Of a stretch of DNA of 64,000 bases, positions 1 to 28,538 are shown piece after piece. The stretch spans positions 408,062-472,061 of the forward strand of contig CAVZDP010000003.1 in assembly GCA_963774075.1 (NCBI GenBank), given 5' to 3'. The notes beneath the pieces were generated by a model. That model saw only the letters and a list, made by a program, of their open reading frames with translations. It made no database searches and was not told the origin of the DNA. The DNA comes from an uncultured Solirubrobacterales bacterium (lineage in GTDB: Bacteria; Actinomycetota; Thermoleophilia; Solirubrobacterales; JBBDJG01). A program made the translations under genes and the position numbers. Every line of letters begins with the position of its first letter. The first letter of the stretch is position 1.

Positions 1-1482
1 CCGCACTGGCTCAGCCACCTCGCCGTCACGTTCCTGAAGAGCTCTCACGCGGGCGTCGGCGGCCCGAACATCCCACCGCCGGGCGGCGGACGGACCGCTG
101 ACTGCGTCGCGAACGCGCCCGGTGGGCCGACGCACGTGCTGCTGTCGGACCGCGAGGCGGAGCACATCCCCGGCTGCAACATGGCTTTTCGCAAGGCGAG
201 CCTGGACGCGATCGGCGGCTTCGATCCGCAGTTCCGCATCGCCGGCGACGATGTCGACATCTGCTGGCGGCTCCAGGACCAGGGATGGACCGTGGGCTTC
301 AGTGCCGGTGCCGTCGTATGGCACCACCGGCGCAGCCGGATGCGGGCCTATCTCAAGCAGCAGTACGAGTACGGCAGGGCCGAGGCCCTGCTCGAGCGCA
401 AGTGGCCGGAGCGCTACAACCGCGTCGGGCACCTGGCCTGGGCCGGACGCGTCTACGGCAACGGCGCCACCAAGGGCCTCGTCTGGCGCCGTTGGAAGAT
501 CTACTACGGGCGCTGGGGCTCCGGCCTGTTCCAGTCCGTCTACACCCGCTCTCCCGGCGCGCTCGCCTCGATGCCGCTGGTGCCGGAGTGGTACCTGGTG
601 CTCACGGCGCTCGCCCTGCTGTCGGCGCTCGGGGCGCTTTGGGCCCCGCTGCTGGCGGCGCTGCCCCTCTTCGTCGTCGCCGCCGGCGCGCTGGTGGTCG
701 AGTCCGCACTCGGCGCCTCACGAGCTTCTCTTCGAGACTGCCCTCGATCACGGCTGGGGCGAATGCGCATGCGGAGCAAGGTCGCTCTGCTGCACATGCT
801 CCAGCCTCTGGCCCGCCTGTCTGGCAGGCTGCGCTACGGGCTCGCGCCCTGGCGTCGCCGGTCGGCCGTCATGGCCCTGCCCATCATTCGTCTCCACAGC
901 ATTTGGAGCGAGCGCTGGCAGTCGGCGCACGAGCGCCTGCACACGATCGAGACGGAGCTTCGCAGCCATGGCTGCGCCGTGCTCCAAGGTGGGGAATACG
1001 ACCGCTGGGACCTCCAGGTCCGCGGCGGAATGTTGGGGGTGGCCCGAATGCGAATGGCCGTCGAGGAGCATGGTGCGGGCAGGCAGCTCGTCCGCACACG
1101 CTCATGGCCTAAGTACTCGCGCGTCGGGCTGGCGCTCATCGTCTCATTCGCAGCGCTCTCCGCGGGAGCGGCCTTGGCAGGCACGTGGATCGTCTCCGTC
1201 ATACTAGGAGCGATCGCAGTCCTGCTTGCCGTCTCGGCAATGAGGGACTGTGCGACGGCGGCAGGCGTGCTTGCACGCGTGCTCGACGCGCAGCCGCCCG
1301 AGAGCGAGGTAAGGGTGAGGCGAGCGCCAAAGGGACCACTACACGCGACGCCCTCTTGGGCGAGCGTGGGACCGGCTACGACAGGCAATGGGAACGAGAA
1401 CGGGCGCGAAAAAGGCCGCCGGCTCCGCCCCGCTCGACCTGCCATCCGCTCCACAGGTGATCCCCTTCTCCTCCAAGCATGA
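1..1482 (+). CDS. Glycosyltransferase family 2 protein, 5'-truncated by the window edge, with a hydrophobic C-terminal membrane region
   Basis: Frame 1 is open from nt 1. It reads GPNIPPPGG..ANAPGGPTHVLLSDREAEHIPGCNMAFRK..GGFDPQFRIAGDDVDICWRLQDQGW..VVWHHRRS..QQYEYGRAEA, which is the C-terminal catalytic half of a GT-A/GT2 enzyme. Leu/Ala-rich helices follow (WYLVLTALALLSALGALWAPLLAALPLFVVAAGALVV; VGLALIVSFAALSAGAALAGTWIVSVILGAIAVLLAV). The stop overlaps the next start (ATGA at 1479-1482). Confidence 0.8.
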   Translation, partial: PHWLSHLAVTFLKSSHAGVGGPNIPPPGGGRTADCVANAPGGPTHVLLSDREAEHIPGCNMAFRKASLDAIGGFDPQFRIAGDDVDICWRLQDQGWTVGFSAGAVVWHHRRSRMRAYLKQQYEYGRAEALLERKWPERYNRVGHLAWAGRVYGNGATKGLVWRRWKIYYGRWGSGLFQSVYTRSPGALASMPLVPEWYLVLTALALLSALGALWAPLLAALPLFVVAAGALVVESALGASRASLRDCPRSRLGRMRMRSKVALLHMLQPLARLSGRLRYGLAPWRRRSAVMALPIIRLHSIWSERWQSAHERLHTIETELRSHGCAVLQGGEYDRWDLQVRGGMLGVARMRMAVEEHGAGRQLVRTRSWPKYSRVGLALIVSFAALSAGAALAGTWIVSVILGAIAVLLAVSAMRDCATAAGVLARVLDAQPPESEVRVRRAPKGPLHATPSWASVGPATTGNGNENGREKGRRLRPARPAIRSTGDPLLLQA

Positions 1483-3995
1483 CTGAGGGCGGCTTCTCCC
1501 AGATCGACCCCTACGGGGGCGGGCAGTCGATTGACCCCTACGGGGGTCACGACCCCGAGTCCCCGAACGGCACTCAGACGAACGTTCCCATTCCCGACCC
1601 GGGAGGGAAAAGCTGGCGCACGTGGCGCATCAAGGGCGCCTTCGACCAGTGGAGCACGCTGCCCCGCGTGCTGCCGTACCTGAAGCCGTACAAGAAGCTT
1701 TACTTGGTGGTCTTCCTGACCATCATGGTGGCGTCCCTGGTCGCGCTCGCGGAGCCGTGGCCGTTCGCCCTGATCCTGGACAGCGTGCTCGCCGACCACC
1801 CTCCGGGACTCGGCCTCAGCGGCATCTTCGGCGACAACCCCAACCCCTACACGCTGCTCGTCTTCATCGTGGTCGGGGGCTTCCTGATCACGATCATCGG
1901 GCACAGCATCGAGGTGGTGAACAACTACGCGAGCGCGCGGCTGGAGCAAAACATGGTGCTCGACCTGCGCAGCAAGCTCTTCCAGCACTGCCAGCGGCTG
2001 TCGCTGACGTTCCACGACGACCGCTACACCGGACAGCTGATGAGCATCATCAACCTGCAGGCGAGTGCCGTCGGGTCGGTGATCATGGCGTTCCCGCCGA
2101 TCGTCCAAAACGCCCTGACACTGGTCGGCATGCTCGTGATCGCGCTGCTGATCTCCTGGCAGGTGACCCTGATCTCGTTGGTGGTCGTGCCGCTGATCTA
2201 CTACGCGAGCGGACTCTACGGGACGCGCATCGTGCCCCGTATCCAGCAGGTGATGAGCCTCGAGTGGCGCTCGCTCTCGATCGTGTTCGAGGCCATGTCG
2301 ATGCTGCGCGTGATCGTCTCCTTCGGACGCGAGAAGTACGAGCACCGCCGGTTCCGCGACCAGGCCAAGACCGCCGTCGACGCCCGGGTGAAGCTCACGG
2401 TCAGCCAGACCTTCTTCACGCTCGGCGTGACGGCCGCGACCGCGTTCGGCACCGCCCTGGTGCTCGGCTTCGGAACCTGGTACGTCCTGCGCGGCAACAT
2501 CACCGTCGGTGAGCTGGTCGTCCTGATCTCGTACATCACCGCCGTCTACCAGCCCATGGAGCAGATCGGGACCCAGATCGGGCACCTGCATCAGCAGTTC
2601 GTGTTCGTGAATGCCGCCCTCATGCTCCTGGACGACGTCCCAGAGGTCTCGGACGCACCCGACGCTCAGTCCATCGCGCGCGCGCAGGGAGGACTCACCT
2701 TCGAGAACGTCAGCTTCGCGTACGAGGGCCGCGTGGACACACTCAAGGGCATCTCATTCGACGTTAAACCCGGAGAGCGCGTCGCGATCGTAGGCCCGAC
2801 CGGAGCCGGCAAGACGACGCTGATCAACCTGCTCGTTCGCTTCTACGAGTTCGGGGAAGGCAAGATCCTGATCGACGACAGGGACATCAGGAAGGTGAAG
2901 CTGGAGTCGGTGCGGCAGAACGTCAGCCTGGTGATGCAGCAGCCGATGCTGTTCTCCGGCACCATCGCCGAGAACATCCGCTACGGGCGCCTCGATGCGA
3001 CGATGGACGAGATCGTCGAGGCGGCGAAGTCGGCCAACGCGCACGAGTTCATCTTGGGCCTCCCCGACGGATACGAGACTTCGCTCGGCGAAGGGGGCAT
3101 GCAGCTCTCCGGCGGCGAGCGCCAGCGCCTGTGCGTGGCGCGGGCTTTCATCAAGGACGCGCCGATCCTCGTCCTCGACGAGCCGACTTCCTCAATCGAC
3201 TCGAAGACCGAGAACGTCATCCTCGAGGCGCTGGACGACCTGATGGTCGGGCGTACGTCTTTCATGATCGCCCACCGCCTCTCCACCATCCACGACGCAG
3301 ACAGGATCCTGGTCATGAATCACGGCGAGCTGGTCGAGCAGGGCTCGCACGACGAGCTGCTGGCACGCGGCGGGCTGTACTCCCAGCTCCACACGGCACA
3401 GACGCGGCACAAGGCGCGGCGAGGCGCTGCCGTGCCCGCCGGCATTCCAGGCCCGGAGACCTCCGCGCCGCCCGTCGCGGCTCCTACCGGGCCCCCCGCC
3501 GGTCCTCCCGTCTCTCCCCAGGTCGAACCTCTCCCCGGCCCGCCCGCCGAGCCGGTGGAGGAGCCTCCGCTCGCACCGACTCCAACGCCGCCCGTGCGCG
3601 AGCGCGTCGCGGCCGCGGTCGCCGAGGCACACAGAGCGCCGCCGCCCGACGACGCCGACGGCCCTCCCCCGCGCGAGCCCAACGGCGTGCCGCCCAAGCG
3701 GCCCAACGGGCCCCCGCCTCGCAAGGTGAAAATCAGCAACGGGGTGCGCCACACGCTTCATTGCGATGTCTGCGGGCGCACCTTGCTCAAAGGCGAGATC
3801 GCCGAGCCGTTCGCGGCGCCGCCCTCGGGGCGGAGGAAGCCGGAGCCGGGGCTCGACACCGAGTTCGATGGACCCTTCCTGACCGACTTTCGCAGGATGG
3901 GTCAGACAGAGCGCAAGCTGGTATGCGAGCTGTGCTGGCCACACGCCGAGGAGCAGGGCTGGACGCCGCTTCCGATGCTGGGAGGCCCGTCCTAG
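1479..3995 (+). CDS. ABC exporter, fused permease plus ATPase (ABCB/MsbA-like), with a ~200-aa Pro-rich and CxxC...CxxC C-terminal extension
   Basis: 838-aa ORF with a TM region (LYLVVFLTIMVASLVALAEPWPFALIL etc.). ATPase motifs are Walker A GPTGAGKTT, signature LSGGERQR, Walker B ILVLDEPTSSID and H-loop MIAHRLST. After ~nt 3400 comes a proline-rich linker, then HCDVCGRTLL...VCELCWPH. Confidence 0.9.
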   Translation: MTEGGFSQIDPYGGGQSIDPYGGHDPESPNGTQTNVPIPDPGGKSWRTWRIKGAFDQWSTLPRVLPYLKPYKKLYLVVFLTIMVASLVALAEPWPFALILDSVLADHPPGLGLSGIFGDNPNPYTLLVFIVVGGFLITIIGHSIEVVNNYASARLEQNMVLDLRSKLFQHCQRLSLTFHDDRYTGQLMSIINLQASAVGSVIMAFPPIVQNALTLVGMLVIALLISWQVTLISLVVVPLIYYASGLYGTRIVPRIQQVMSLEWRSLSIVFEAMSMLRVIVSFGREKYEHRRFRDQAKTAVDARVKLTVSQTFFTLGVTAATAFGTALVLGFGTWYVLRGNITVGELVVLISYITAVYQPMEQIGTQIGHLHQQFVFVNAALMLLDDVPEVSDAPDAQSIARAQGGLTFENVSFAYEGRVDTLKGISFDVKPGERVAIVGPTGAGKTTLINLLVRFYEFGEGKILIDDRDIRKVKLESVRQNVSLVMQQPMLFSGTIAENIRYGRLDATMDEIVEAAKSANAHEFILGLPDGYETSLGEGGMQLSGGERQRLCVARAFIKDAPILVLDEPTSSIDSKTENVILEALDDLMVGRTSFMIAHRLSTIHDADRILVMNHGELVEQGSHDELLARGGLYSQLHTAQTRHKARRGAAVPAGIPGPETSAPPVAAPTGPPAGPPVSPQVEPLPGPPAEPVEEPPLAPTPTPPVRERVAAAVAEAHRAPPPDDADGPPPREPNGVPPKRPNGPPPRKVKISNGVRHTLHCDVCGRTLLKGEIAEPFAAPPSGRRKPEPGLDTEFDGPFLTDFRRMGQTERKLVCELCWPHAEEQGWTPLPMLGGPS

Positions 3996-4102
3996 TGCTG
4001 TTGCCCCGCAGCGGCCGTTTCACTCTTCCCCGGCACTGAGGGGACCTCCTAGACTTTGAGGTCAAAGGCCACGACGCCCGTGCCTTCGCACCCGGGCCGG
4101 CC

Positions 4103-6601
4103 GTGCCACGCAACGAGGAGCACACCTTGAGACCCGGAGCCGGGAAGAAGATCGTTCTGCTCGGAATGATGACGCGGATCCCGGTTGCGGGCGTGGTCTG
4201 GCAGACCGTCCACTACCTGATCGGGCTCCGGCGACTCGGCTACGAGGTCTACTACGTGGAGACCCACGCCCGCACGCCCTCGATGCTGATGAAGCGCGAG
4301 GAGGACGACAGCTCCGCCGAGGCGGCCGCCTTCATCGACAAGGTGATGCGGCAGTTCGACATGAAGGACCACTGGGCGTTCATCGGCCTCCATGACGACG
4401 GGCGCTGCTACGGCCTCAGCGAGGAGCGGCTGCGCAAGCTGTATACGTCGGCCGCGCTGCTTCTCAACCTCCACGGCGGTACCGAGCCGCGACCGGAGCT
4501 CTACGCCACCGACCGACTCGTCTACCTGGAGACCGACCCGGTCCAGCTCCAGGTCGAGTTGAGCCAGAACGTGCAGGCGACCCTCGACTTCCTCGAGCCT
4601 CATTGCGCGTTCTTCACCTACGCCGAGAACTCCGGTAACCCGGACTGCGGGCTTCCCGTCCAAGACCGGTTCCCCCTGCTTCCGACGCGCCAACCGGTCG
4701 TTTTGGACTTCTGGCGCGACCGCCCTTCGGGGCCGCTCGAGCGGTTCACGACCATCGGCAACTGGCGCCAACCATGGCGTGACGTCGTCTTCCAGGGCGA
4801 GCGCTACAGCTGGAGCAAGCACCACGAGTTCCTCAAGTTCCTCGACCTTCCGGGCCGCACCGCGCAGCCCTTCGAGCTGGCGCTCTCGAGCTACGAGCCC
4901 GAGGACAAGGCCATGCTCGAGGAGAAAGGCTGGCGGGTGACGCACGCCCTCGACGTCTCGACCGACACCGATCCCTACCGCGACTACATCGTCTCGTCGC
5001 GCGGCGAATTCTCGGTCGCAAAGGACCAGAACGTGCGCCTTCGCACCGGTTGGTTCAGCGACCGCAGCGCGACCTACCTGGCCGCCGGCCGGCCGGTCGT
5101 CTGTCAGGACACCGGGTTCACGAACGTGCTGCCCTCCGGGGAGGGCTTGTTCGGTTTCTCGGACCTGGAGCAGATCGTTTCCGCGATCGAGGAGATCAAC
5201 GGCGACTACGACCGGCATTCTCGTGCCGCAACGAGAGTCGCGGAGGAGTGGTTCGACTCGAGCGTCGTGCTCGGCAAGCTGCTCGACGACGTCGGGCTCG
5301 AGCGCTCGAGGCTGCGCGCGAGGCCGCGGCTCGAGCGGCTGCGGTCGCTGTTTCCCGCCGGGATGGAGCTGACTCCCACCTCGCGCCGGCCCACCGAGCT
5401 CCCGGAAGGGACCGCGAGGGCCGTCCTCGAGCGCCCGGTCGAGAGCTTCGAGCCCGTGGCGAGGCGCGGGCCGCCCCTGGCGAGCGTCGTCGTGGTGACC
5501 CACGACAACCTCGCCTTCACGCGCATGGCCCTCGAGAGCGTGCTGGCCGACCGCGCCGGCGCGGCCTACGAGCTCGTGATCGTGGACAACGCCTCGAGCG
5601 ACGGCACGCGCGACTACCTGCGCGAGCTGGCGGAACGCAACGACGCCGTCAGGCTGGTGCTCAACGAGGTCAACGCCGGCTTCGCGCGTGCCTGCAACCA
5701 GGGCCTGGCGGTCGCGTCGGGAAAGCTGCTCGTGCTGCTGAACAACGACACGATCGTGGCGCCGGCGTGGCTGACACGGCTGGCCGGCTGGCTGGGCGAC
5801 CCCGAGATAGGGCTCGTCGGGCCGGTCACCAACCGGATCGGCAACGAGGCGGAGATCGAGGTCTCATACGAGACCTGGGAAGGCTTCCTCGAGGCCGCGA
5901 ACGCCCGGGGGCGCGACCGCGACGGCGAGAGCTTCGACCTCCCAACCGCGACGATGTTCTGCCTGGCGATGAGACGGGACGCCAACGAGCGGATCGGGCC
6001 GCTAGATCAGCGGTTCGAGGTGGGAATGGTGGAAGACGACGACTACTCGCGGCGCGCCCACGCGGCTGGCTACCGGGTGGTGTGCGCGGAGGACGTGCTC
6101 GTGCACCATTTCGGTGAGAGCTCGTTCGGCAAGCTCGTCCCCACCGGCGAGTACGGCCGCCTGCTGGAGGAGAACAAGCGCCGCTTCGAGGAGAAGTGGG
6201 GAGAGCCGTGGCAACCCTACGGGAGGGGCGAGAAGCCCGACTACGCCGACCTGACGCGGCGGATCCGATCAGTGGTGGCGCAGGCACTGCCGCCGAGCGC
6301 GACCGTGCTCGTCGTGAGCAAGGGGGACGACGAACTACTGAAGTTCGGCGGCCAGCCGGCCCGTCACTTTCCGAGCGCACCGGATGGCACCTGGGCCGGC
6401 CATCATCCGGCGGACAGCCGGGAGGCCGTGGCGCTGCTGGAGGAGATGCGACAGCAGGGCGGCGAGTTCGTGCTCTTCCCGAAGACGGTGCTCTGGTGGC
6501 TCGACTACTACGAGGGTCTTCGGGAGCATCTCGAGGCACGGTACGAGTCGGTGTACAGCGACAAAGAGACGTGCGTGATCTTCGCCCTCAACGGGCGCTA
6601 G
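4103..6601 (+). CDS. Three-domain fusion: ~380-aa GT-B-like module, then a GT2 catalytic domain, then the C-terminal ~95-aa WWLD domain
   Basis: The N-terminal part aligns with the ORFs at 39332, 53637 and 55586 (VVWQTVHYLIGLRRLGYEV.. TGWFSDRSATYLAAGRPVVCQDTGF). The middle part is GT2 (SVVVVTHDNLAFT..VIVDNASSDGT..NAGFARACNQG..LLNNDTIV..EDDDYSRR). The tail is VLVVSKGDDELLKF..HFPSAPDGTWAGHHPAD..VLWWLDYYEGLREHLEARY..CVIFAL. The start is uncertain: GTG 4103, or TTG 4127, which has GAGGAG 7 nt upstream. Confidence 0.85.
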   Translation: MPRNEEHTLRPGAGKKIVLLGMMTRIPVAGVVWQTVHYLIGLRRLGYEVYYVETHARTPSMLMKREEDDSSAEAAAFIDKVMRQFDMKDHWAFIGLHDDGRCYGLSEERLRKLYTSAALLLNLHGGTEPRPELYATDRLVYLETDPVQLQVELSQNVQATLDFLEPHCAFFTYAENSGNPDCGLPVQDRFPLLPTRQPVVLDFWRDRPSGPLERFTTIGNWRQPWRDVVFQGERYSWSKHHEFLKFLDLPGRTAQPFELALSSYEPEDKAMLEEKGWRVTHALDVSTDTDPYRDYIVSSRGEFSVAKDQNVRLRTGWFSDRSATYLAAGRPVVCQDTGFTNVLPSGEGLFGFSDLEQIVSAIEEINGDYDRHSRAATRVAEEWFDSSVVLGKLLDDVGLERSRLRARPRLERLRSLFPAGMELTPTSRRPTELPEGTARAVLERPVESFEPVARRGPPLASVVVVTHDNLAFTRMALESVLADRAGAAYELVIVDNASSDGTRDYLRELAERNDAVRLVLNEVNAGFARACNQGLAVASGKLLVLLNNDTIVAPAWLTRLAGWLGDPEIGLVGPVTNRIGNEAEIEVSYETWEGFLEAANARGRDRDGESFDLPTATMFCLAMRRDANERIGPLDQRFEVGMVEDDDYSRRAHAAGYRVVCAEDVLVHHFGESSFGKLVPTGEYGRLLEENKRRFEEKWGEPWQPYGRGEKPDYADLTRRIRSVVAQALPPSATVLVVSKGDDELLKFGGQPARHFPSAPDGTWAGHHPADSREAVALLEEMRQQGGEFVLFPKTVLWWLDYYEGLREHLEARYESVYSDKETCVIFALNGR

Positions 6602-6608: not shown

Positions 6609-8141
6609 ATGAGCGCCTCGTGCTCGATCGTCATTCCGGCCCACAACCGCGCGGGGCTGACGCGGCAGTGCGTCGACGCGATCCTGGCCGAAGCTCCGGA
6701 AACGCCCTTCGAGGTCGTCGTGGTGGACGACGCCTCGACGGACTCCACCGCCCGCCTGCTCGAGAGCTACGGCGACCGCATTCGGGCGGTCACGCTGTCG
6801 CCCAACGCGGGCTTCGCCACCGCGTGCAACGAGGGGGCGGCGGCAGCCACCGCGGAGAACCTCGTGTTCCTCAACAACGACACGATCCCGAAGCCGGGCT
6901 GGCTGGACGCGCTCGCCGCCCATGCCGCCTCTCGTCCGAACGCCGCCGTCGTTGGAGCGAAGCTCTTGTTCCCCGACGACTCGATCCAGCACGCCGGCGT
7001 GGTCGTCTGCCAGGACTGGAATCCGCGCCACCTCTACGCCGGCTTTCCCTCGGATCATCCGGCCGTGAACAGGTCGCGCGAGTTCCAGGCCGTCACGGCG
7101 GCCTGTGCGCTGGTGCGGCGCTCCAGCTTCGAGGAGGTCGGCGGCTTCGATCCGGCCTTCCACAACTGCCTCGAGGACACGGACCTCTGCCTGCGTCTCC
7201 GCGAGCGGGGCCACGAGGTCCACTACTGCCACGAGAGCGTGCTCTACCACCTGGAGTCGATCTCGCGCGGGCGACGCTCGAAAGACGTGGAGCGCAACGC
7301 GAAGCTCTTCCGGGATCGCTGGCAGGGCCGGGTGAAGCGCGACGACCTCGACTACTACCTCGCCGACGGACTGCTCAGGATCCGGTATCGCGACAGCTAT
7401 CCGATCGGACTCGAGGTCTCCGCGGAGCTCGCGTTCCTGGTCGGCGACGAACACGCCTCCGAGCGCCTGCTCGACGCCCAGTCGAGGCACGTCACGGATC
7501 TGTTGCGCGAGACGGTGCGGCTGAGCGCTCACGTCGCCGATCTCGAGCTTCCCGGCGCTGCGCGTCCGCCGAGGGAGCAGCCGGCTCCCGCGCCGGTGGT
7601 CTCGGGCGGCACTTTCGATCGCGAACAGCTCCTTCGCCGCGCCGAGCAGATCGAGATCGAGATCTACGAGCTGCAGGCCGGGCTCGCGGCCGCAGCCGAG
7701 GACGGCCGAGGGCGCGGCGGCGACCGCCCATCCTTCGAGCCGAGCGAGCAGCTCGGCTACCGCAAGCTCGTCACGGAGGTGCGCCGCAAGGCGGTCGGCA
7801 TCCTCCCGGCCGGCGCCACCGTGCTCGTTGCGAGTCGCGGGGACGACGACCTGCTGGCGCTCGACGGCCTGCGTGGGTGGCACTTCCCGCAGGACGAGGA
7901 TGGAATCTATGCCGGGCACTATCCGGCCGACGGGGACGCCGCGGTCGCCCATCTGGAAGAGCTGCGCGAGCGCGGGGCGCAGTACCTGCTCCTTCCCGCC
8001 ACGTCGCTGTGGTGGCTCGATCGCTACCCGGAGCTCGGCGCCCACCTGCGCGAGCGACACCGCGTCGCCCTCGAGGACGAGAGCTGCACTGTCTTCGACC
8101 TCCGCGCGCGGGGGAAGAGCCAGGATGCGACTCGCGGCTGA
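6609..8141 (+). CDS. GT2 glycosyltransferase with a central helical linker and the C-terminal WWLD domain
   Basis: GT2 motifs are CSIVIPAHNRAGLT..VVVVDDASTDST..NAGFATACNEG..FLNNDTIP..LEDTDLCLRLRERG. The C-terminus is VLVASRGDDDLLALDG..HFPQDEDGIYAGHYPADGD..SLWWLDRYPELGAHLRERH..CTVFDL. Confidence 0.85.
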   Translation: MSASCSIVIPAHNRAGLTRQCVDAILAEAPETPFEVVVVDDASTDSTARLLESYGDRIRAVTLSPNAGFATACNEGAAAATAENLVFLNNDTIPKPGWLDALAAHAASRPNAAVVGAKLLFPDDSIQHAGVVVCQDWNPRHLYAGFPSDHPAVNRSREFQAVTAACALVRRSSFEEVGGFDPAFHNCLEDTDLCLRLRERGHEVHYCHESVLYHLESISRGRRSKDVERNAKLFRDRWQGRVKRDDLDYYLADGLLRIRYRDSYPIGLEVSAELAFLVGDEHASERLLDAQSRHVTDLLRETVRLSAHVADLELPGAARPPREQPAPAPVVSGGTFDREQLLRRAEQIEIEIYELQAGLAAAAEDGRGRGGDRPSFEPSEQLGYRKLVTEVRRKAVGILPAGATVLVASRGDDDLLALDGLRGWHFPQDEDGIYAGHYPADGDAAVAHLEELRERGAQYLLLPATSLWWLDRYPELGAHLRERHRVALEDESCTVFDLRARGKSQDATRG

Positions 8142-8999: not shown

Positions 9000-11900
9000 G
9001 TGGCGGGACTGGGCTGGGGCAGGGCTGGATGCCACGCGCTGAGAGTCTGCCCTTTGGCTGCGCTGATCGCGGTTTTGTTGTTTTCCGCCGCGCCGGCGTC
9101 GGCTGCCGTGACCCTGCCAGCAGGGTTTGACGACCAAGGCGTGACGATCGTGTCCCGCCCGACGGCGATGGACTGGACGCCCGACGGCCGGATGGTGATC
9201 GTCTCCCACCCCGGCATCATCCGGATCTTCGAGAACGGGGTGCTCCAGACCCCCGCCGCCCTCGACTGGCGACCGAACACCTGCCGCTCCGAGGAGTGGG
9301 GCATGAACGGCGTCGCCGTCGACCCGAACTTCGCCACCAACAACTACATCTACGTCTACTACACGGCGAAGAAGTTCGGCGGCTGCGAGAAGAACGTGCC
9401 GAACAGCCCGGTGAACCGCGTTTCGCGCTTCGTGCTGCAGCCCAACGACGTCGTCGACCCACTGAGCGAGACGATCATCGTGGACGGTATTCCGGACCCC
9501 GATGGAATCCATGCCGGCGGAGACGTCGAGTTTGGCTCCGACGGCAACCTCTGGATCAGCACCGGCGACGGCGGCTGCGACTTCCGCGGCGACAGTGGCT
9601 GCTATCCCTTCAACGACGCCGCTCTGGATCTCGGCTCCACCGGGGGGAAGATCCTTCGCGTCACCAAGACCGGCGCCATCCCGCCGGACAACCCTTATCA
9701 GGGCGCCGGCACCACGCAGTGCAGCCCGACCGGCTACACGGTGATCACGTCCATCTGCAGAGAGATTTACTCGTACGGCCTGCGCAACCCGTTCCGGATC
9801 GCGTTGAAAGGCGGCCCCCCGACGCCGCAGGTCTACGCGAACGACGTCGGGCTCAACATCTGGGAGGAGGTCAACCAGGTCGCCGCCGGTGCGAACTTCG
9901 GCTGGAACGTGCGCGAAGGCAACTGTGTGCGCGACTCGAGCACCGACTGCGGGCCGCCACCGGCGGGGATGACGAACCCCATCCACTCCTACAACCACGC
10001 GACGGGCTGCGTGTCGGTGACCGCCAGCGACTTCGTGCCGACCAGCGCCTGGCCGAGCCCTTACGACGGCGACTATCTGTTCGGGGACCTCATCTGCGAG
10101 AAGATCTGGCAGCTCGACTCCAACGGCGGCGGAGTGACCGAGTTCGCCACCGGAGTGCCTTGGTTGATCGACGGCGTCTTCGGCCCCGACGGGGCGAGCA
10201 AGTCCTACTACTACATAAGCTGGGTCGGGTTCCCGAACGACGAGATCCGGAAGATCGTCTACACCGGCCAGGAGAACCGCACGCCGACCGCGGACGCGTC
10301 CGCCAACCCCACCTCCGGTGGCCTACCCCTGAACGTCGCGTTCGACGGCACCGCCTCGAGCGATCCCAACAACGACACGCTCACCTACGACTGGGACTTC
10401 GGTGACGGCTCCCCGCACTCGACCTCACCGATGCCGAGCCACAGCTACTCGACGCCCGACACCTTCACCGTCACGCTCACGGTCGATGACGGCAACGGCG
10501 CTCAGGACACCGACACCGTGGAGATATCGGTCGGCAACGAGGCGCCGCAGGTCTCGATCGACGCGCCGGTGGCCAGTGAGCAATTCTCTGTCGGCGAGAC
10601 CCTGACGCTGGTCGGAAGCGCCGAGGACAGCGAGGACGGAACGCTCCCGAACAGCGCGCTCGAGTGGCGGGTCGAACGGCACCACAGCACGCACAGCCAC
10701 CCGTTCCTGGACACGACGATGGGCAACAACATCCCCATAGTCGGGCCTGAGCCCGAGGAGCTGTCTGCCGCCACCAACAGCTACCTCGAGATCATCCTGA
10801 CCGCTACCGACTCGTTCGGCGTGTCGACGACCGTGAGCCGGAACATCTACCCCAAGACGGTGCCGATCACGTTCGGCACCAGCCCGAGCGGACTTCAACT
10901 CGAGGTCGCCGGCAGCACTCTCACGACGCCGATCACCGTCACTTCCTGGGACAACTGGGACCTGATCGTGAATGCCCCCGACCAGTTCAACCTCTCCGGG
11001 CAGTTCTGGCGCTTCGCGAGTTGGTCCGACCTCGGCGCCCGGAGCCACACGATCAACACCCCGTCGCTGGCCACGAGCTACACGGCGACGTTTGCGGCCA
11101 ACCAGGCGCCGACCGCCGTGGCGAGCGCCGATCCGACCAGCGGAGGGGGGCCGCTGACCATCGACTTCGACGCCACCGGTTCCAGCGACCCCGACGACCC
11201 GAGCCTCACCTACAGCTGGGACTTCGACGACGGCTCGCCGCCCTCGAGCTCACCGACTCCCACCCATACCTACAACTCCGAAGGCACCTTCAGCGCGACG
11301 CTGACAGTCGACGACGGGCACGGGGCCGAGGACGTGGACGTAGTCCCGATCACGGTCACGAACACTGCGCCCCAGGTCTCGATCGACGCGCCGCTCGCCG
11401 GCACGCTTTTCAAGGTGGGCGAGGCGATGACGCTCACGGGCACCGCCCAGGACGCCGAGGAGGGCACGCTGCCCGACAGCGCGCTCGACTGGCGCGTGAT
11501 CAAGCACCACGGCGCGCACACGCACACGCACCTTCCCAACACGCCGGGCAACAACGTGCCGATCACTGGCCCCGCCCCCGAGGACTTGGCCGCGACCACG
11601 TCCACGCATCTGGAGATCGTGCTCGAGGCGACCGACTCACTCGGGGTCACGACGACCGTGACGCGCGACATCTTTCCCAAGACGGTCGGCCTGACTTTCG
11701 CGACCAACCCCACCGGGCTCGACCTGACGGTGGCGGGGCAGGCGCTGATCGCCCCGCAGACGATCACCTCCTGGCAGGACTGGGTGATACCGGTCAGCGC
11801 ACAGAGCCAGTTCGACGACCTCGACCAGTTCTGGCACTTCTCGAGCTGGTCCGATTCGGGCGCGGGCACCCACACGATCACGACCCCGGGCACGGCGTCC

Positions 11901-13409
11901 ACCTACACGGCGACGTTCCAGGCCAACCAGGCGCCGACGGCGGTGGCGGCGGCCGACGACACGAGCGGCCCCAACCCGCACACCGTGAACTTCGACGCGA
12001 CCGACTCGAGCGATCCAGACGACGCAAGCCTCAGCTACCTGTGGGACTTCGGCGACGGCTCGCCGACCTCTACCTCTCCCACCCCGGCGCACACCTACAC
12101 CACCACGGGCCCGTCCACGGCGACGCTGACGGTCGACGACGGCCACGGGGGCGTGGACACGGACACCATCCAGATCGAGGTCACGAATGGGCCTCCACAG
12201 CCGACCATCGTCACGCCCGCCACCGGAACGCTCTTCAGCGTCGGCCAGGGACTGACGCTCTCGGGCGGCGCGACCGACGCGGAGGACGGGACGCTCGGCG
12301 ACGGGTCGCTGTCGTGGAAGGTCCTGGTCCATCACGACACCCACACGCACACGCTGCTCGACGACACGCCGGGCAACAACGTCCCCATCACCGGCCCTGC
12401 GCCCGAGAACCTGTCGGCCACCACCAACAGCCACCTGGAGCTGATCCTGACGGCGACCGACTCCAACAGCGCGACGACCACGGTAACCCGGAACATCAAC
12501 CCGAGAACGGTCGCCCTCACGTTCCAGTCGAACCCGACGGGCTTCCAGCTCGGGGTCGCCGGCACCACGTTCACGGCGCCGCAGACCATCACCTCGTGGG
12601 CGGGCTGGCAGATACCGGTGTCCGCGCCCGACCAGCTCGATTCCCAGGGCAGGTACCACGTCTTCGACACCTGGTCCGACGGCGGGGCGGCGACACACAC
12701 GATCACGACGCCCTCCTCGGCCCAGACCTACCAGGCGAGCTTCCGGACGTTCGCGTATCCGCGCCCGGGCGGCGGCACGCCGCTGCGGGTGGCGCTCGTG
12801 CCTGAGTACGTCCAGTGCGCGACACCGAACGGCAGCCATGTCGGGCCGCTGGACGAACCCTCCTGCAGCCCGCCGCAGCGCGCCTCGTCCCAGCTCACCA
12901 CGTCGACGCAGGGCAGGGGCAACGGCTTCGCCCGGCTCGACGTCAAGCCCGGTACGAACCCACCGTCCATGGACGATGCCGACCTGCGAATCCGGGCGAC
13001 AGTGACCGACGTCGTCCGCAACATCGGAGGGGCGCCCGACTACGTGGGCCCGATGATCCTGCGCATGAGGCTGCGAATCACGGACGGCGTCAGCGGCCCG
13101 AACGAGCAGACGGCGGCGACGGTCCAGGACATCGCGTTCTCGGTCCCGGTCAACTGCGTGGCGACTAACGGCACCCCGACTCCGGTCGGCGGGACTTGCA
13201 GCGTCGACACCATGACCGACTCGATCCTCCCCAACTTCGCCAAGGAACGAAGCCGGGCCGTGATGAGCGCGTTCTCGATGGAGGTCCTCGACGCCGGCGC
13301 CGACAGCTCGATCACTCCGACCTCCGCCCCCTTCGGATTGGGCTGCCCGCCCACTTGCGGATCGGGTGACGAAGCCGTCTACATGCGCCAGGGCGTGTTC
13401 GCCCCCTGA
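9000..13409 (+). CDS. Secreted multidomain protein: PQQ-dependent sugar (glucose/sorbosone) dehydrogenase-like beta-propeller, three PKD-containing repeats, and an unknown C-terminal domain
   Basis: The signal peptide is CPLAALIAVLLFSAAPASA|AV. GSDH-type motifs are GMNGVAVDPNF..NRVSRFV..HAGGDVEFGSDGNLWISTGDGG..GGKILRV..PPDNPY..YSYGLRNPFR..NDVGLNIWEEVN..GANFGWN. Three ~275-aa repeats follow, each starting with a PKD-like unit (..DPDD.SLTYSWDFGDGS..HTY...TLTVDDG.G). Confidence 0.85.
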   Translation: MAGLGWGRAGCHALRVCPLAALIAVLLFSAAPASAAVTLPAGFDDQGVTIVSRPTAMDWTPDGRMVIVSHPGIIRIFENGVLQTPAALDWRPNTCRSEEWGMNGVAVDPNFATNNYIYVYYTAKKFGGCEKNVPNSPVNRVSRFVLQPNDVVDPLSETIIVDGIPDPDGIHAGGDVEFGSDGNLWISTGDGGCDFRGDSGCYPFNDAALDLGSTGGKILRVTKTGAIPPDNPYQGAGTTQCSPTGYTVITSICREIYSYGLRNPFRIALKGGPPTPQVYANDVGLNIWEEVNQVAAGANFGWNVREGNCVRDSSTDCGPPPAGMTNPIHSYNHATGCVSVTASDFVPTSAWPSPYDGDYLFGDLICEKIWQLDSNGGGVTEFATGVPWLIDGVFGPDGASKSYYYISWVGFPNDEIRKIVYTGQENRTPTADASANPTSGGLPLNVAFDGTASSDPNNDTLTYDWDFGDGSPHSTSPMPSHSYSTPDTFTVTLTVDDGNGAQDTDTVEISVGNEAPQVSIDAPVASEQFSVGETLTLVGSAEDSEDGTLPNSALEWRVERHHSTHSHPFLDTTMGNNIPIVGPEPEELSAATNSYLEIILTATDSFGVSTTVSRNIYPKTVPITFGTSPSGLQLEVAGSTLTTPITVTSWDNWDLIVNAPDQFNLSGQFWRFASWSDLGARSHTINTPSLATSYTATFAANQAPTAVASADPTSGGGPLTIDFDATGSSDPDDPSLTYSWDFDDGSPPSSSPTPTHTYNSEGTFSATLTVDDGHGAEDVDVVPITVTNTAPQVSIDAPLAGTLFKVGEAMTLTGTAQDAEEGTLPDSALDWRVIKHHGAHTHTHLPNTPGNNVPITGPAPEDLAATTSTHLEIVLEATDSLGVTTTVTRDIFPKTVGLTFATNPTGLDLTVAGQALIAPQTITSWQDWVIPVSAQSQFDDLDQFWHFSSWSDSGAGTHTITTPGTASTYTATFQANQAPTAVAAADDTSGPNPHTVNFDATDSSDPDDASLSYLWDFGDGSPTSTSPTPAHTYTTTGPSTATLTVDDGHGGVDTDTIQIEVTNGPPQPTIVTPATGTLFSVGQGLTLSGGATDAEDGTLGDGSLSWKVLVHHDTHTHTLLDDTPGNNVPITGPAPENLSATTNSHLELILTATDSNSATTTVTRNINPRTVALTFQSNPTGFQLGVAGTTFTAPQTITSWAGWQIPVSAPDQLDSQGRYHVFDTWSDGGAATHTITTPSSAQTYQASFRTFAYPRPGGGTPLRVALVPEYVQCATPNGSHVGPLDEPSCSPPQRASSQLTTSTQGRGNGFARLDVKPGTNPPSMDDADLRIRATVTDVVRNIGGAPDYVGPMILRMRLRITDGVSGPNEQTAATVQDIAFSVPVNCVATNGTPTPVGGTCSVDTMTDSILPNFAKERSRAVMSAFSMEVLDAGADSSITPTSAPFGLGCPPTCGSGDEAVYMRQGVFAP
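10272..12746 (+). repeat. Three tandem in-frame 825-nt (275-aa) coding repeats inside the secreted dehydrogenase-like gene
   Basis: Repeat units start at 10272 (ENRTPTADA), 11097 (ANQAPTAVA) and 11922 (ANQAPTAVA), so the period is exactly 825 nt. Units 2 and 3 share long identical peptide stretches (ANQAPTAVA, TLTVDDGHG, PGNNVPITGPAPE). Confidence 0.9.
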
Positions 13410-16252: not shown

Positions 16253-17416
16253 TCATTCCCTTCGCAGGGCGAGCAGCCTGCAGGCGTCCTCGTCGACGAC
16301 CACGCTCGAACGCCCCTGGAGCTGGTGCCTGAACGCCTCTCGCTCCTCGAGCCACCGAAACGTCGCAGGCGAAAACAGGATATATCCCGCTCCTCGCCTG
16401 TAGAGCTCATCCAGCGCCGAGCTCTCGTCGACCGCATCCGCGGGAGGGAAGTGAAGCGCCGTCCTGCCGTCGAGTCCGGTGATCTGCTCCAGCACACGGT
16501 CGTCGCCGCCGGACGCGACGAGGACCGTGCTCTCGGGTGGCGTGAGCGTTCGCACGACCTCACGTATGCGTCCCAGGTGGCCTCCCGGCCGCTGGGAGTC
16601 GAAGTCTTCGAACACCGCCTCTTCCCGCGCGGCGTAGATGCCGATGTTGTCGATGCCGGCTCCAGATCCCGGCGCCTTGTACCAGGGCCCGTGGCGGATG
16701 GCGGAGAGGCCCGCCCACTCGAGCATGCGCGCGAGGACCGCAGGGCCGGTCGGGTACCACTGGAGCCCGTGCACTCCCGAGAGCAGGCGAGTACGCGACT
16801 CCTCTCCGGCCACCAGGGCGCCATCGGGAAATCCGCGGCGGCTGGCGGTGCTGAGGATCATGAGCTCGCCGGTCAGGTCGGCGGCGATCCGCAGACCCTC
16901 GATCGGGTCCGGGAGGTGGTAGAGGATGCCGCGGAAGAGCACGACGTCGAAGCGCTCCAGCTCGAGCGCCGGGACGTCGTACAGGTCGCAGACCTCGAAG
17001 CGGATCCCGTCGCTCGGCGCAGACCTCGCCCGGCTGAGGAAGCGCGCCTGCTCGATCCAGTGCTCGCGTACGTCGAACCCGAGGCACTCGCCAGCGCCCA
17101 TCTCCCTTGCCAGGAACAGGTAGGCGCCGCAGTTGCAGGCGCAGTCGAGGACGCTGCGCCCCTGCAGACCGGTCGGGAAGAGGCGCTTCATCAGCCACCT
17201 GAACCCCGGCCCGGGGTCGTAGAACGCCCCAGGCGTCGAGGCGGCGACCGGCTCCAGGAAGTCCCTCGTGCCGAGGCGGCCGGTGATCTCCACGTTGAGG
17301 TGCCAGGGACGAAGCCGCTCGCCCTCGCGCAGCAGTGACGCTTCGGCGGCGTCGGGGCTCGCCTCCAGCGCGTCGGCGCCGGATCCCGGCGGGGGCTCAG
17401 GCCGCGACGGGTGCAC
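16253..17416 (-). CDS. SAM-dependent methyltransferase (CmoB/DUF1698-like core) fused to the C-terminal WWLD-type domain
   Basis: The methyltransferase part is GRSVLDCACNCGAYLFLAREMGA..RFDVVLFRGILYHLPDP. The C-terminus is STVLVASGGDDRVLEQ..ALHFPPADAVDESSALDELYRRGAGYILFSPATFRWLEEREAFRHQL..ACRLLAL. The GTG start at 17416 overlaps the upstream gene's stop by 20 nt, and a later start is possible. Confidence 0.8.
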   Translation of the reverse strand: MHPSRPEPPPGSGADALEASPDAAEASLLREGERLRPWHLNVEITGRLGTRDFLEPVAASTPGAFYDPGPGFRWLMKRLFPTGLQGRSVLDCACNCGAYLFLAREMGAGECLGFDVREHWIEQARFLSRARSAPSDGIRFEVCDLYDVPALELERFDVVLFRGILYHLPDPIEGLRIAADLTGELMILSTASRRGFPDGALVAGEESRTRLLSGVHGLQWYPTGPAVLARMLEWAGLSAIRHGPWYKAPGSGAGIDNIGIYAAREEAVFEDFDSQRPGGHLGRIREVVRTLTPPESTVLVASGGDDRVLEQITGLDGRTALHFPPADAVDESSALDELYRRGAGYILFSPATFRWLEEREAFRHQLQGRSSVVVDEDACRLLALRRE

Positions 17417-19298
17417 CGCGCGCGGGCGTCTGCCCGTGGGTGGGCGCCGCCATCAGCTCTTCGATCAGCGCCCGCCAGCGGTGCGTCTGCAGCCACGCGT
17501 TGTAGCGGGTGGCGAGCCAGCGATACTCACTGGCAGTCGGGTAGGACTGCTCCTCGAGGTGATAGAGCTCGGCCGCCGGCAGGTACCAGTTCTGGCGCCC
17601 GAGGCGGATCAGGCTCAAGCAGAGGTCCGAGTCCTCGTAGCCGCCCTGCACGTACGAGTGGTCGAAGCCGCCAACCTCCTCGAAGAGGGCCCTGTCGATC
17701 ATCATGCACGCTCCCGTCACCGCCGGCACTGGTCGCGCGACGTTGGCAGGCGCGAAGTTCCTCGCGAGCCCCTTGAGGTAGTGCTGGTTGCCCCACAGGG
17801 AAGTCGCCGCGTCGAGCTGGAAGAACATGCCCGCATGTTGGAGTGAGTGGTCCTCGTAGAGGAGCTTCGAACCGAGTGCCCCGATGTTCGGCGTCGCGTC
17901 GTAGAACGCCGCCATGCGGGAGATCCAGCCCGGCCGGGCGGGCAGCACATCGGAGTTCACGAACAGGAGCGTTCGTCCCCGGGCGATCGAGGCGCCGAGG
18001 TTGTTGGCGATCGCGTAGCCTCCGTTGCGGCTGAGGATCGCGACACGGAACGGAAGCCCGTAGAACTCGTGCAGGTCCGCGGCGACGCTGTTGAGGTCGC
18101 GGGCGAGCTCCGGCGAGTCCAGCACGTAGAGCAGGTCGACCGTGCCGATCTCCCGATCGTGTACGAACTGCGCCATCTGGTGCTGAAGGAAGTCGATCCG
18201 CTCGTAGAACGGCACGACGACCGAGACCGTCGGCGACTGCGGTTGGGTCCCGTACTCGATGACGGTGTCGACCTCGACCGACCGTTGCAGCCGCTCCTGT
18301 AGCCGCGACAGGGCTGGGTGAGCGTGCGTCTCGGTCAGCCGATGCTGGAAGTCGTCCTCCTTCGTGTCCCTGAGGATCAGCTCGCGAACCGCGACGAAGT
18401 CCCGAATCACCTCTGGGGTGGCGCCCTCCGTCCCACCTCCCCCGGCGGTCTCGAGCTTCGTCAGCCACCCGGTGGAGAGGCGGCTTGGCGCTGCCAGCTC
18501 GAAGCAGCTCATGAGCCCGTGCTTCTCGGACGTCTCCATGCCGGCGCTGCCATAGGCGTGCTCGATGTCGGGGCGCCCATAGCGGAATGCGTCCTGCAAC
18601 AGCTCCGTCGCGAACCCCTCGGGCGAGACGGCGATCAGCCCGGTCGCCGCCTTCTTCTCGTCTCGGATCCAGCCCCTGATCCAGAATGCGCGATCGTCAA
18701 TCGCCATGATGCGATCGACGTCGTGGTTCAAGGGCTCGTCCGCCGTGCTCACGCGCTCGCGCCCTCGCTCGCGCAGGATCTCGCGCAGGCCCAGCAGGTT
18801 CGTCGCGAGGGTGCCGGCGTCCGCGCCGTCGAGGTGCGGGGCGCAGGCCTCGAGGACGAGCTCGTGCAGCTCCCGCCGCGCGGCCGGCTCCAGGGGCGAA
18901 AGCCGAGCGCCGAGCGCCTCGTCGACCAGCCGGGGTGAGGCCTGCAGCTCGGCCGGGCCCAGGACGAGCGTCGACGGGCCCGAGCGTAGGACGAGCTCGT
19001 TCACGCCCGCGTCGCGGGCGCCTCGCGGAAACTCGACGATGGCGAGCATGCTCACGCTCGCGCCCCCCGCGACCTCGTGACGACGATAGCGCTGGGCGAA
19101 GATGGCGACCTCCGCATCGCCGCCCTCGAGCTTCACTCGAGCACGTACGACGCGCGAGCTGCCCAGATCGCAGACGACGAGCAGCAGATCGTCGTTCAGC
19201 CACGCCGCGCCCGAAAGCGTGCCGTCGCTACGGCGCCGGAACAGTCGGCCCGGCGCCCGGACGAGGTTGCGCAAGGTCGTGGAGAGCCGCTCGAACAT
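17397..19298 (-). CDS. Two-domain glycosyltransferase: unknown ~340-aa N-terminal X domain plus C-terminal GT2 domain (X-GT2 paralog 1 of 4)
   Basis: The GT2 part is VSVVVPFYERIDFLQHQMAQF..LLYVLDSPE..NGGYAIANNLGA..FVNSDVLPARPGW..LLYEDHSLQHAGM..GGYEDSDLCLSL. The N-domain shares IMAIDDRAFWIRGWIRDE..GLIAVSPEG..FRYGRPDI..GW with the ORFs at 24378, 29887 and 34099. Confidence 0.85.
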   Translation of the reverse strand: MFERLSTTLRNLVRAPGRLFRRRSDGTLSGAAWLNDDLLLVVCDLGSSRVVRARVKLEGGDAEVAIFAQRYRRHEVAGGASVSMLAIVEFPRGARDAGVNELVLRSGPSTLVLGPAELQASPRLVDEALGARLSPLEPAARRELHELVLEACAPHLDGADAGTLATNLLGLREILRERGRERVSTADEPLNHDVDRIMAIDDRAFWIRGWIRDEKKAATGLIAVSPEGFATELLQDAFRYGRPDIEHAYGSAGMETSEKHGLMSCFELAAPSRLSTGWLTKLETAGGGGTEGATPEVIRDFVAVRELILRDTKEDDFQHRLTETHAHPALSRLQERLQRSVEVDTVIEYGTQPQSPTVSVVVPFYERIDFLQHQMAQFVHDREIGTVDLLYVLDSPELARDLNSVAADLHEFYGLPFRVAILSRNGGYAIANNLGASIARGRTLLFVNSDVLPARPGWISRMAAFYDATPNIGALGSKLLYEDHSLQHAGMFFQLDAATSLWGNQHYLKGLARNFAPANVARPVPAVTGACMMIDRALFEEVGGFDHSYVQGGYEDSDLCLSLIRLGRQNWYLPAAELYHLEEQSYPTASEYRWLATRYNAWLQTHRWRALIEELMAAPTHGQTPARGAPVAA

Positions 19299-19310
19299 GG
19301 CGTGGGCCTC

Positions 19311-20606: not shown

Positions 20607-20831
20607 GTGAGACGCACGCCCAAGCGGGACGTTAGCCACTCCGGCAGGCGCATCGCCAAGCCCGCGTCGCGTTTCACCAGACGCTGCCGCGGCGACGCGC
20701 CGGCGCTCCTGGAGAGCTCTCCCCCCGCCTTTGTGCGGTGCGGCGGGCCCAAATCGGTCGATTAGACTATACATCGAGAAGTAAGGCGGACTGGGCGGCT
20801 CTGGCGCCGGATCGGGAGCGGTAGGTAAGGC
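20607..20831. promoter_or_regulatory. Divergent intergenic region (225 nt) between the minus-strand GT4/X-GT2 pair and the plus-strand cassette array; candidate bidirectional promoter region
   Basis: This is the largest non-coding gap in the core. It contains the only clearly A/T-rich patch (aaatcggtcgattagactatacatcgagaagtaagg, ~20751-20787). That patch has TAGACT (20763-20768, plus strand) and TATAGT (complement of 20766-20771, minus strand) as -10-like TAnnnT hexamers. No convincing -35 element. Confidence 0.35.
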
Positions 20832-23037: not shown

Positions 23038-23068
23038 CCGATGCCCAACCCGCTCGAGGAATAGGTCG

Positions 23069-28537: not shown

Positions 28538-28538
28538 C

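Follow-up and report, generated by a model that had tools for sequence, protein, structure and literature searches.

The stretch of DNA analysed here, called the window, comprises 64,000 nucleotides from an uncultured Solirubrobacterales bacterium (contig CAVZDP010000003.1, positions 408,062 to 472,061). Near its upstream end lies a gene, at 4103-6601, whose single product joins three modules: an N-terminal module with a predicted GT-B glycosyltransferase fold (the N-module), a central glycosyltransferase domain of family 2 (GT2) and a C-terminal domain that we call WWLD. An earlier reading of the letters alone (the sequence-only reading) had proposed this gene as a Rosetta-stone fusion. Table 1 lists the gene, its parts and the other features of the window.

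An intact open reading frame (ORF) spans the gene. Its real start is likely the TTG at 4127, giving a product of 824 amino acids, because an identical database protein (P0001) has this length and the sequence GAGGAG at 4116-4121 precedes the codon. The GC content at third codon positions (GC3) is 0.90, which is typical for a window of 68% GC and marks the ORF as a real coding sequence. More than 120 full-length orthologue clusters were found (793-858 amino acids, 59-77% identity, 95-100% coverage), and genome matches to the full-length protein come exclusively from Solirubrobacterales metagenome-assembled genomes (MAGs). In an alignment of 120 orthologues, 198 positions are conserved in at least 98% of the sequences and occur in all three modules, each of which is, as the alignment indicates, under purifying selection. 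The protein has no hydrophobic (transmembrane) segment and is probably soluble.

Table 1. Features of the window (positions in nucleotides). The target is the fusion gene at 4103-6601. Abbreviations not yet introduced are explained in the text.
Feature	Position	Strand	Remarks
Three-module fusion gene (target)	4103-6601	+	832 codons from GTG 4103; stop-to-stop frame 4040-6601
N-module, undescribed GT-B-fold family (predicted)	4148-5296	+	Residues ~16-398; AlphaFold2, Foldseek
Inter-domain linker	5297-5467	+	Residues 399-455 (55 residues); low pLDDT; between N-module and GT2
GT2 (GT-A) domain and C-terminal helix	5468-6262	+	Residues 456-720; Pfam PF00535, PF13641
WWLD domain	6263-6592	+	Residues 721-830; ~110-amino-acid alpha/beta accessory domain; HMM E 6e-48
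Membrane GT2, partial at window edge	1-1482	+	Hydrophobic segments after catalytic domain; conserved first gene of array
Fused TMD-NBD ABC exporter	1479-3995	+	Pfam ABC_membrane (PF00664) and ABC_tran (PF00005); directly 5' of target
GT2+WWLD paralogue	6609-8141	+	8 nt 3' of target; WWLD at residues 392-500; conserved neighbour in L001-L009
Free-standing N-module paralogue 1	39332-40480	+	36% identity to target; orthologues in L030 (61%), L031 (50%)
Free-standing N-module paralogue 2	53637-54797	+	36% identity to target; orthologues in L030 (63%), L031 (45%)
Free-standing N-module paralogue 3	55586-56719	+	35% identity to target; orthologues in L030 (58%), L031 (50%)
Tandem-WWLD protein, no enzyme domain	26335-27234	+	Like 20832-21731 and 31813-32781; two WWLD copies each, second degenerate
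Methyltransferase+WWLD protein	16253-17416	-	Beside the inverted cassette relative
First complete cassette	21715-27234	+	GT4, GT4, X+GT2 (~630 amino acids), tandem WWLD
Second complete cassette	27140-32781	+	Same gene order
Third, partial cassette	32532-35964		GT4, X+GT2; no tandem-WWLD gene
Inverted cassette relative	17397-20837		GT4, X+GT2; beside methyltransferase+WWLD; related block 17.4-21.7 kb
X domains	24324-25418; 29887-30927; 34021-35130		~350 amino acids, N-terminal in X+GT2 proteins
X domain	18234-19298	-	As above
Sulfotransferases	36011; 37938; 40499		Region 36011-42475; 40499 gene with ~350-amino-acid unannotated N-terminal extension
Weak sulfotransferase-like protein	54798		254 amino acids
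APH-like kinase	56716
APS kinase	57985		~190-amino-acid N-terminal extension; region 54798-59082
GT92-like / Glyco_tranf_2_4 proteins	48577-53633		Four paralogues, 49-57% identical; one on minus strand with 260-amino-acid unannotated N-terminal extension
Interrupting segment	44400-48520		GC 0.64; small ORFs besides the next two genes
Alpha/beta hydrolase	46680-47717	-
F420H2-dependent quinone reductase domain protein	47528-48517
Glucose/sorbosone dehydrogenase with three PKD domains	9000-13409		N-terminal hydrophobic segment
1,160-amino-acid protein	59101-62583	-	N-terminal hydrophobic segment
RTX-repeat protein	62591-63841	-

The sequence-only reading had divided the product into a GT-B-like part at residues ~1-400, colinear with three free-standing genes of the window, a GT2 domain at ~455-700 and a WWLD domain in the last ~95 residues. 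That one ORF joins these modules is confirmed by the intact frame, by Pfam, by BLAST within the window and by a hidden Markov model (HMM) of WWLD. In BLAST, residues 17-399 show 35-36% identity to the free-standing paralogues, with E values of 1e-59, 7e-58 and 7e-68 for the genes at 39332, 55586 and 53637, so the similarity on which the earlier claim depended is significant. Pfam recognises the middle part only, through Glycos_transf_2 (PF00535) at residues 461-631, with 89.9 bits against a gathering cutoff of 23.3, and Glyco_tranf_2_3 (PF13641) at residues 457-678. Residues 721-832 match the recurrent WWLD domain in BLAST; its presence stands, but its length was measured as ~110 rather than ~95 residues. 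The protein consists of three independently folding modules and a flexible linker.

The N-module has no match in Pfam even at E<=10 (PF00534 and PF13692 included) and none in NCBIfam, and nothing was found among PDB sequences with either a single sequence or a profile. An AlphaFold2 model built from 60 homologues has a mean predicted local distance difference test score (pLDDT) of 88.4 and shows two Rossmann-like halves and, at the C-terminus, a crossing helix. Foldseek against the PDB gave 192 matches at E<=1e-3, and the top 50 listed are nearly all GT-B glycosyltransferases, the best being the GT4-type structures 7qsg (ManT), 7fga and 2gej (PimA) with probability 1.0 and 10-14% identity. From the model, the N-module thus has two Rossmann-like domains with significant likeness to solved GT-B enzymes, as expected of the predicted GT-B fold. 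A relation to PF13524 (Glyco_trans_1_2), which we take to be a "glycosyl transferase-like" family of CgeB type, seems to be distant only. Two free-standing paralogues score 20.2 and 18.2 bits over their C-terminal half, below the gathering score of 25; the protein at 53637-54797 has a sub-threshold match, a few orthologues have precomputed ones, and the N-module of the fusion protein has none at E<=10. Other weak sequence signals point to WbaZ-1 and GlcN-PG synthase.

Four N-module lineages, the fused one and three free-standing ones, each have their own orthologue group. Some 48-50 positions are invariant in fused and free-standing members, including R293, E302, D320 and R321 in the donor-binding half, while K307 is conserved among the fused orthologues only. 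The donor-binding (C-terminal) half of the fused module is 43-46% identical to the paralogues, whereas the acceptor (N-terminal) half is 25-28% identical. The free-standing family is large: its members are "hypothetical proteins" of ~385 amino acids, and at least 7,714 of 8,000 candidates match at E<1e-5. Two sets of proteins were rejected as relatives of the N-module, namely the X domain of the four X+GT2 proteins, considered as a diverged N-module (hhalign probability 0.1), and the GT-B domains that the closest GT2 homologues of other phyla carry in their fusions, which gave no signal at the sequence level in tblastn or hhalign. In the window, one small gene (54798-55562) lies between the 53637 and 55586 genes. 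A partial Gemmatimonadaceae MAG protein (P0236, 597 amino acids) is a tandem N-module fusion with halves closest to the 53637 and 55586 types, and by these similarities it is an independent fusion linking two free-standing paralogue types.

In the GT2 module, inspection showed the motifs D495 (in VDNAS), N547-N-D549 and E644-D-D-D647, of which D495, N547, D549 and E644-D647 are at least 98% conserved in the 120 orthologues; as in GT2 enzymes generally, D495, the DxD-like N547-N-D549 and E644-D647 would be the nucleotide/metal-binding and base-region motifs. The nearest GT2 homologues outside Solirubrobacterales are 42-52% identical and likewise stand C-terminal to a GT-B domain. Although the GT-B domain in front of them is an unrelated one, the recurrence of this order in other phyla suggests that the GT2 lineage is habitually half of a GT-B/GT-A pair. 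The linker in front of the GT2 domain carries a near-invariant motif, S427-R-R-P430..L433..T437 (nt 5381-5413), and elsewhere its conservation is 0.25-0.29.

The WWLD domain occurs in nine copies in six proteins of the window, as found by BLAST and HMM: the fusion protein, the GT2+WWLD paralogue (6609-8141), the methyltransferase+WWLD protein (16253-17416, minus strand) and, with two copies each, the tandem-WWLD proteins at 20832-21731, 26335-27234 and 31813-32781. Its pattern is VVSxGD..LL...HFP...G.(W/Y)AG..PaDs..A...LE.LR..G..(F/Y)l..P....WWL..Y..l..HL, to which residues 721-830 conform. No Pfam or NCBIfam model matches the domain, and its profile found nothing real among PDB sequences; matches to designed TIM barrels were discarded as spurious. 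The AlphaFold2 model (pLDDT 93.4) has the order beta-alpha-beta-alpha-beta-alpha-beta-beta, and the conserved H755-F-P, D742, D771 and W798-W799 lie in it at the C-terminal ends of strands 1-3. In Rossmann-like folds the C-terminal ends of those strands form the usual ligand crevice. Since the conserved residues cluster there, a ligand site is favoured for the domain.

An exhaustive profile search found WWLD in 4,120 representative clusters when the cutoff was E<=1e-3 and in 2,547 when it was E<=1e-10. The proteins have 236-1,983 amino acids and up to seven copies each. Among 59 long members the partners were GT4 (19), GT2 (14), methyltransferase (9), sulfotransferase (6), PF13524 (4) and pyruvyl transferase (3). 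Judged by these partners, WWLD accompanies enzymes of glycan synthesis or modification as an accessory domain. At least two WWLD-bearing proteins are encoded in each related locus examined. In the window, a search of the ABC exporter's C-terminal extension and of other regions that lack annotation gave no further copies. A disordered stretch rich in Pro, Ala and Glu lies near the C-terminus of the tandem-WWLD proteins (tails at 27100-27231, 32650-32778 and 21600-21728). In most of the listed members (P0241-P0282) a short basic amphipathic motif, conserved as SFGxRLRRILF.. or GLWQRILGFFRR, comes after it. The hydrophobic moment of this motif, 0.4-0.95, is similar to that of the membrane-targeting helices of FtsA and MinD, and the motif may be a membrane tether.

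We then considered how relatives encode the three parts. A metagenome scan was performed with the N-module alone, which avoids a bias to fused forms, and it returned 80 loci with N-module identities of 56-79%. N-module, GT2 and WWLD share one ORF in 36 of them; two more are fused but reach a contig end, and one has N-module and GT2 in one ORF with WWLD outside it. About 10 loci have an N-module gene followed by a separate adjacent GT2(+WWLD) gene. In 20 others the N-module gene stands by itself, commonly next to a GT4-like gene or to one for a WWLD protein that begins 42-177 nt downstream, and 10 are uninformative. Both fused and separate states therefore exist, which was the comparison that the sequence-only reading had called for. 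In five loci with separate adjacent ORFs (L037, L051, L067, L083 and L110), the N-module is 59-66% identical and the GT2+WWLD product 48-59% over GT2. Three split junctions were inspected, and they look like real gene boundaries: a TAA followed 4 nt on by an ATG (L051), an ATGA overlap (L083) and AGAGGA with an ATG (L037). In these three, the fission point corresponds to residues ~400-415, where the linker is variable and its model has low confidence. The SRRP motif stays with the downstream GT2(+WWLD) gene, clearly in L051, where it stands at the N-terminus, and in degenerate form in L037; it may serve as a peptide to which the N-module docks. Within this orthologue group, separation of GT2 and WWLD into different genes was not seen.

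Since the N-module identity is equal in fused and split forms, they represent one orthologue group in different states. By this orthology the gene is a genuine Rosetta stone, in that separate genes elsewhere are orthologous to the fused N-module and to the fused GT2+WWLD part. Because these genes are neighbours in some relatives, the N-module and GT2+WWLD very likely work together, and the earlier argument that the fused modules share a substrate or complex gains support. Larger fusions were also found. P0403 (1,584 amino acids) combines a target-type N-module, GT2, sulfotransferase, WWLD, GT4 and WWLD, and holds the operon position of the fusion gene in L031; P0392 consists of an N-module, an unannotated region, GT4 and two WWLD copies. 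Target-type N-modules (61-66% identity) also occur on contigs of lower GC, namely L037 (0.52), L069 (0.42), and L072 and L087 (0.54); L037 and L072 have the same ABC exporter in front. High-GC Solirubrobacterales are therefore not the only carriers of the system.

The gene has a conserved neighbourhood. The ATP-binding cassette (ABC) exporter, in which transmembrane domain (TMD) and nucleotide-binding domain (NBD) are fused, lies directly upstream in the window, in L001-L009, in L030 and L031 and in many metagenome loci, as far as upstream regions were examined. An ABC transporter gene is thus coupled to genes for cytoplasmic glycosyltransferases in the window and in related loci. Eight Solirubrobacterales MAG loci share the order GT92-like, membrane GT2, ABC exporter, fusion gene and GT2+WWLD; in most of them tandem WWLD, GT4, X+GT2, sulfotransferases and, where the locus reaches, a 39332-type N-module follow. 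Two loci contain a compact, co-directional operon of ~17-18 kb. L030 has the order membrane GT2, ABC exporter, fusion gene, GT4, sulfotransferase, 39332-type N-module, methyltransferase, sulfotransferase, 53637-type N-module, 55586-type N-module, APH-like kinase, YdjC and adenosine phosphosulfate (APS) kinase, while L031 has membrane GT2, ABC exporter, the P0403 fusion, methyltransferase, GT2+WWLD, three N-modules, kinase and YdjC. Three separate sulfotransferase or sulfotransferase-like genes are present in L030; the sole sulfotransferase of L031 is a domain of the fusion protein. The membrane GT2 orthologues, upstream of the exporter in both, have 871-885 amino acids. As a side observation, the exporter of the window has a C-terminal extension of ~190 residues (about 650-838) past the NBD, which is poorly conserved (tblastn usually stops at ~650), and its L031 orthologue has 706 amino acids only.

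The sequence-only reading had also held that the fusion links the upstream 1-8.9 kb of the window functionally with both its core and the 53-57 kb segment. This link holds through the conserved synteny in L030 and L031. It does not follow from the fusion by itself, because the fused N-module forms its own orthologue group, ~35% identical to the free-standing paralogues, and so says little about them. In terms of gene order, the window is an expanded version of the compact L030/L031 system with unrelated genes inserted.

The expansion includes the cassettes of Table 1. Their paralogues are 42-60% identical, and as related MAG loci have one copy only, the cassettes represent a lineage-specific expansion. 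The X domain of their X+GT2 proteins, for which Pfam gave no match, is likewise a recurrent module without annotation. From its sulfotransferases and APS kinase, the locus appears to supply and use 3'-phosphoadenosine 5'-phosphosulfate (PAPS), and with both supply and use its product is probably heavily sulfated. In related MAG loci, a GT92-like gene stands ~3 kb upstream of the membrane GT2. The segment at 44400-48520 breaks the run of glycan genes and looks like unrelated inserted material; its F420 enzyme fits an actinobacterial host. On either side of the locus stand large, probably extracellular proteins, namely the dehydrogenase with PKD domains, the 1,160-residue protein and the RTX-repeat protein. 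A homologue of the first is near the locus in L002 too.

With somewhat more confidence than doubt, we propose that the fusion protein is a cytoplasmic bifunctional glycosyltransferase, in which the GT-B and the GT2 module add one sugar each to a common membrane-anchored acceptor and WWLD is a shared targeting module. The conserved operon would build a sulfated, probably methylated, glycan or glycolipid and export it via the adjacent ABC exporter; besides the exporter, the fusion gene co-occurs with GT4s, sulfotransferases, three further N-module paralogues, an APH-like kinase and an APS kinase. Both modules would take their sugar from a nucleotide sugar and act on this acceptor as it grows, in two successive steps or by alternating as a two-sugar polymerase. 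Because the donor half is the better conserved one, the four N-module lineages may use a similar donor and different acceptors. WWLD would be non-catalytic and keep the enzyme on the common substrate or assembly. It would most likely do so by binding a common acceptor feature and less likely by pairing with other WWLD domains, among them the probably membrane-tethered tandem-WWLD proteins.

Several observations weigh against this proposal. No priming phosphoglycosyltransferase (PF00953/PF02397-type) and no Wzm/Wzt-type (ABC-2) transporter was found among the window proteins scanned. The N-module belongs to no curated glycosyltransferase family, and its catalysis is deduced solely from the conserved polar residues R293, E302, K307, D320 and R321. 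It lacks the EX7E motif of GT4, with the near-invariant W317 and Y325 at those positions, and hence by sequence criteria is not a GT4 member; Y325 was placed through a very weak alignment to WbaZ-1 (E 0.54; Y-L-A-S-G-K-P against E-A-M-A-S-G-K-P) and W317 by counting back eight residues from it. For WWLD, Foldseek found no significant neighbour in the PDB (best E 0.046). Against the docking variant in particular, tandem-WWLD genes were not found in the compact loci L030 and L031, so docking to tandem-WWLD proteins cannot be the general role of WWLD.

Other explanations differ widely in their standing. The idea that the single ORF is an artefact, in which a sequencing or assembly error erased a stop or frameshift between separate genes, is effectively refuted. 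Split versions are known in some relatives, and frameshift-like breaks occur in the related MAG loci L008 and L009, but the frame is intact here and equally continuous in more than 120 independent full-length clusters and the 36 fused metagenome loci. Continuous-frame relatives also share a homologous linker with the near-invariant SRRP motif, and the high GC3 persists along the ORF. As for L008 and L009, the ABC exporter, fusion gene, GT4 and X+GT2 are all interrupted in the same frameshift-like manner, so that the errors belong to those assemblies (MFD MAG contigs); the breaks are probably assembly errors and were rejected as cases of gene splitting. A more serious alternative, though an improbable one, is that only GT2 is catalytic and the N-module is a non-enzymatic pseudo-glycosyltransferase, for example an acceptor-binding part or scaffold that presents the substrate to GT2. 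The missing Pfam and NCBIfam matches, the missing EX7E motif and the low identity to solved GT-B enzymes would all agree with it. Many GT-B families lack EX7E, however, and the invariant positions include charged residues of the donor half, which also scores, below threshold, against PF13524; four separately conserved paralogue lineages are moreover the pattern expected for enzymes with distinct specificities. We give still less credence to a GT-B-fold enzyme of non-Leloir type, either a polyol- or sugar-phosphate transferase (like TagF) or an epimerase-like protein, by which the fusion would couple two chemistries. The UDP-GlcNAc 2-epimerases 1v4v and 1f6d are among the significant Foldseek matches, the N-module family is uncharacterised and its paralogues adjoin sulfotransferases and a kinase. 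Nevertheless, glycosyltransferases supply the best fold matches and the largest number of them, and the weak sequence signals (PF13524, WbaZ-1 and GlcN-PG synthase) point to families of that type.

The alternative for WWLD deserves more weight than these, yet we regard it as unlikely. On this view, WWLD serves mainly to pair proteins as homo- or heterodimers and does not bind a ligand, so that the copies on enzymes pair mutually or with tail-tethered tandem-WWLD proteins. The enzyme-free proteins, with two copies of which the second is degenerate, resemble pseudo-dimers; the recurrence of WWLD-bearing proteins in each related locus and the conserved amphipathic tail of most listed tandem members also agree with pairing. 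By contrast, the most conserved residues (HFP, GDD, PAD and WW) lie at positions that serve small-ligand binding in Rossmann-like folds, and L030 and L031 lack the tandem gene that tethered pairing would use. Binding of a common acceptor feature seems the likelier role of WWLD, while the degenerate second copy and the tail keep docking or tethering plausible.

Multi-enzyme glycan pathways are hard to annotate, and a fusion/fission series running from split genes through the three-module to the six-module protein is direct genomic evidence of which uncharacterised parts act together. It gives a likely role to two large unannotated families, the ~385-amino-acid "hypothetical protein" with more than 7,700 matches and the ~110-amino-acid domain with about 4,100 clusters. 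The compact operon is a tractable target for finding the product. Abundant soil Actinomycetota that are still uncultured probably make it, as a sulfated glycan. A broader proposal, which we advance tentatively and with more doubt than belief, is that WWLD is an unrecognised widespread targeting or docking domain which brings otherwise unrelated enzymes (GT2, GT4 and methyl-, sulfo- and pyruvyl-transferases) to a shared substrate or to a scaffold tethered at the membrane, so that bacterial glycan synthesis would follow a modular assembly-line logic, that the N-module is a new glycosyltransferase family, and that the operon makes an undescribed sulfated envelope glycoconjugate of Thermoleophilia-type Actinomycetota.

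Dual-domain glycosyltransferases beside ABC transporters are well known, for example WbdA of E. coli O9a, WbbB of Raoultella and Klebsiella, WbbM of Klebsiella O2a and the Pasteurella heparosan synthases. The present system resembles them in having two glycosyltransferase modules on one soluble cytoplasmic polypeptide, with an ABC exporter and chain modifiers (methyltransferase, kinase) nearby, and in the extra non-catalytic domains that organise assembly. It differs from them in its exporter, which is a fused TMD-NBD protein (PF00664 type) and not Wzm/Wzt, in a modification set dominated by sulfotransferases and in its Thermoleophilia-like actinomycetotal host. Its GT-B module and accessory domain come from undescribed families; a literature search on PF13524 and on Solirubrobacter glycan or sulfotransferase work found nothing relevant. 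When compared with ManT (7qsg) of the methylmannose polysaccharide pathway and PimA (2gej), the N-module is alike in fold (Foldseek E 1e-10 to 1e-9, probability 1.0, template modelling score ~0.5-0.6) and unlike in sequence, with its 10-14% identity, no PF00534 or PF13692 match and W317/Y325 at the EX7E positions. A similar arrangement is that of the GT-B+GT2 fusions of Acidobacteriota, Anaerolineae, Phycisphaeraceae and Bryobacterales (L011-L019), where a GT2 domain of 42-52% identity is also C-terminal to GT-B and has the same EEKWGEPW helix end. In contrast to the N-module, their GT-B domain is of recognisable GT1/GT4 type with no detectable sequence relation to it; they have no WWLD, and some have an N-terminal methyltransferase. 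Enzymes of this kind are thus already known. The novelty lies in how several elements combine: a GT-B family and a widespread accessory domain, both undescribed, a documented fusion/fission series and a sulfation-rich operon in uncultured Actinomycetota.

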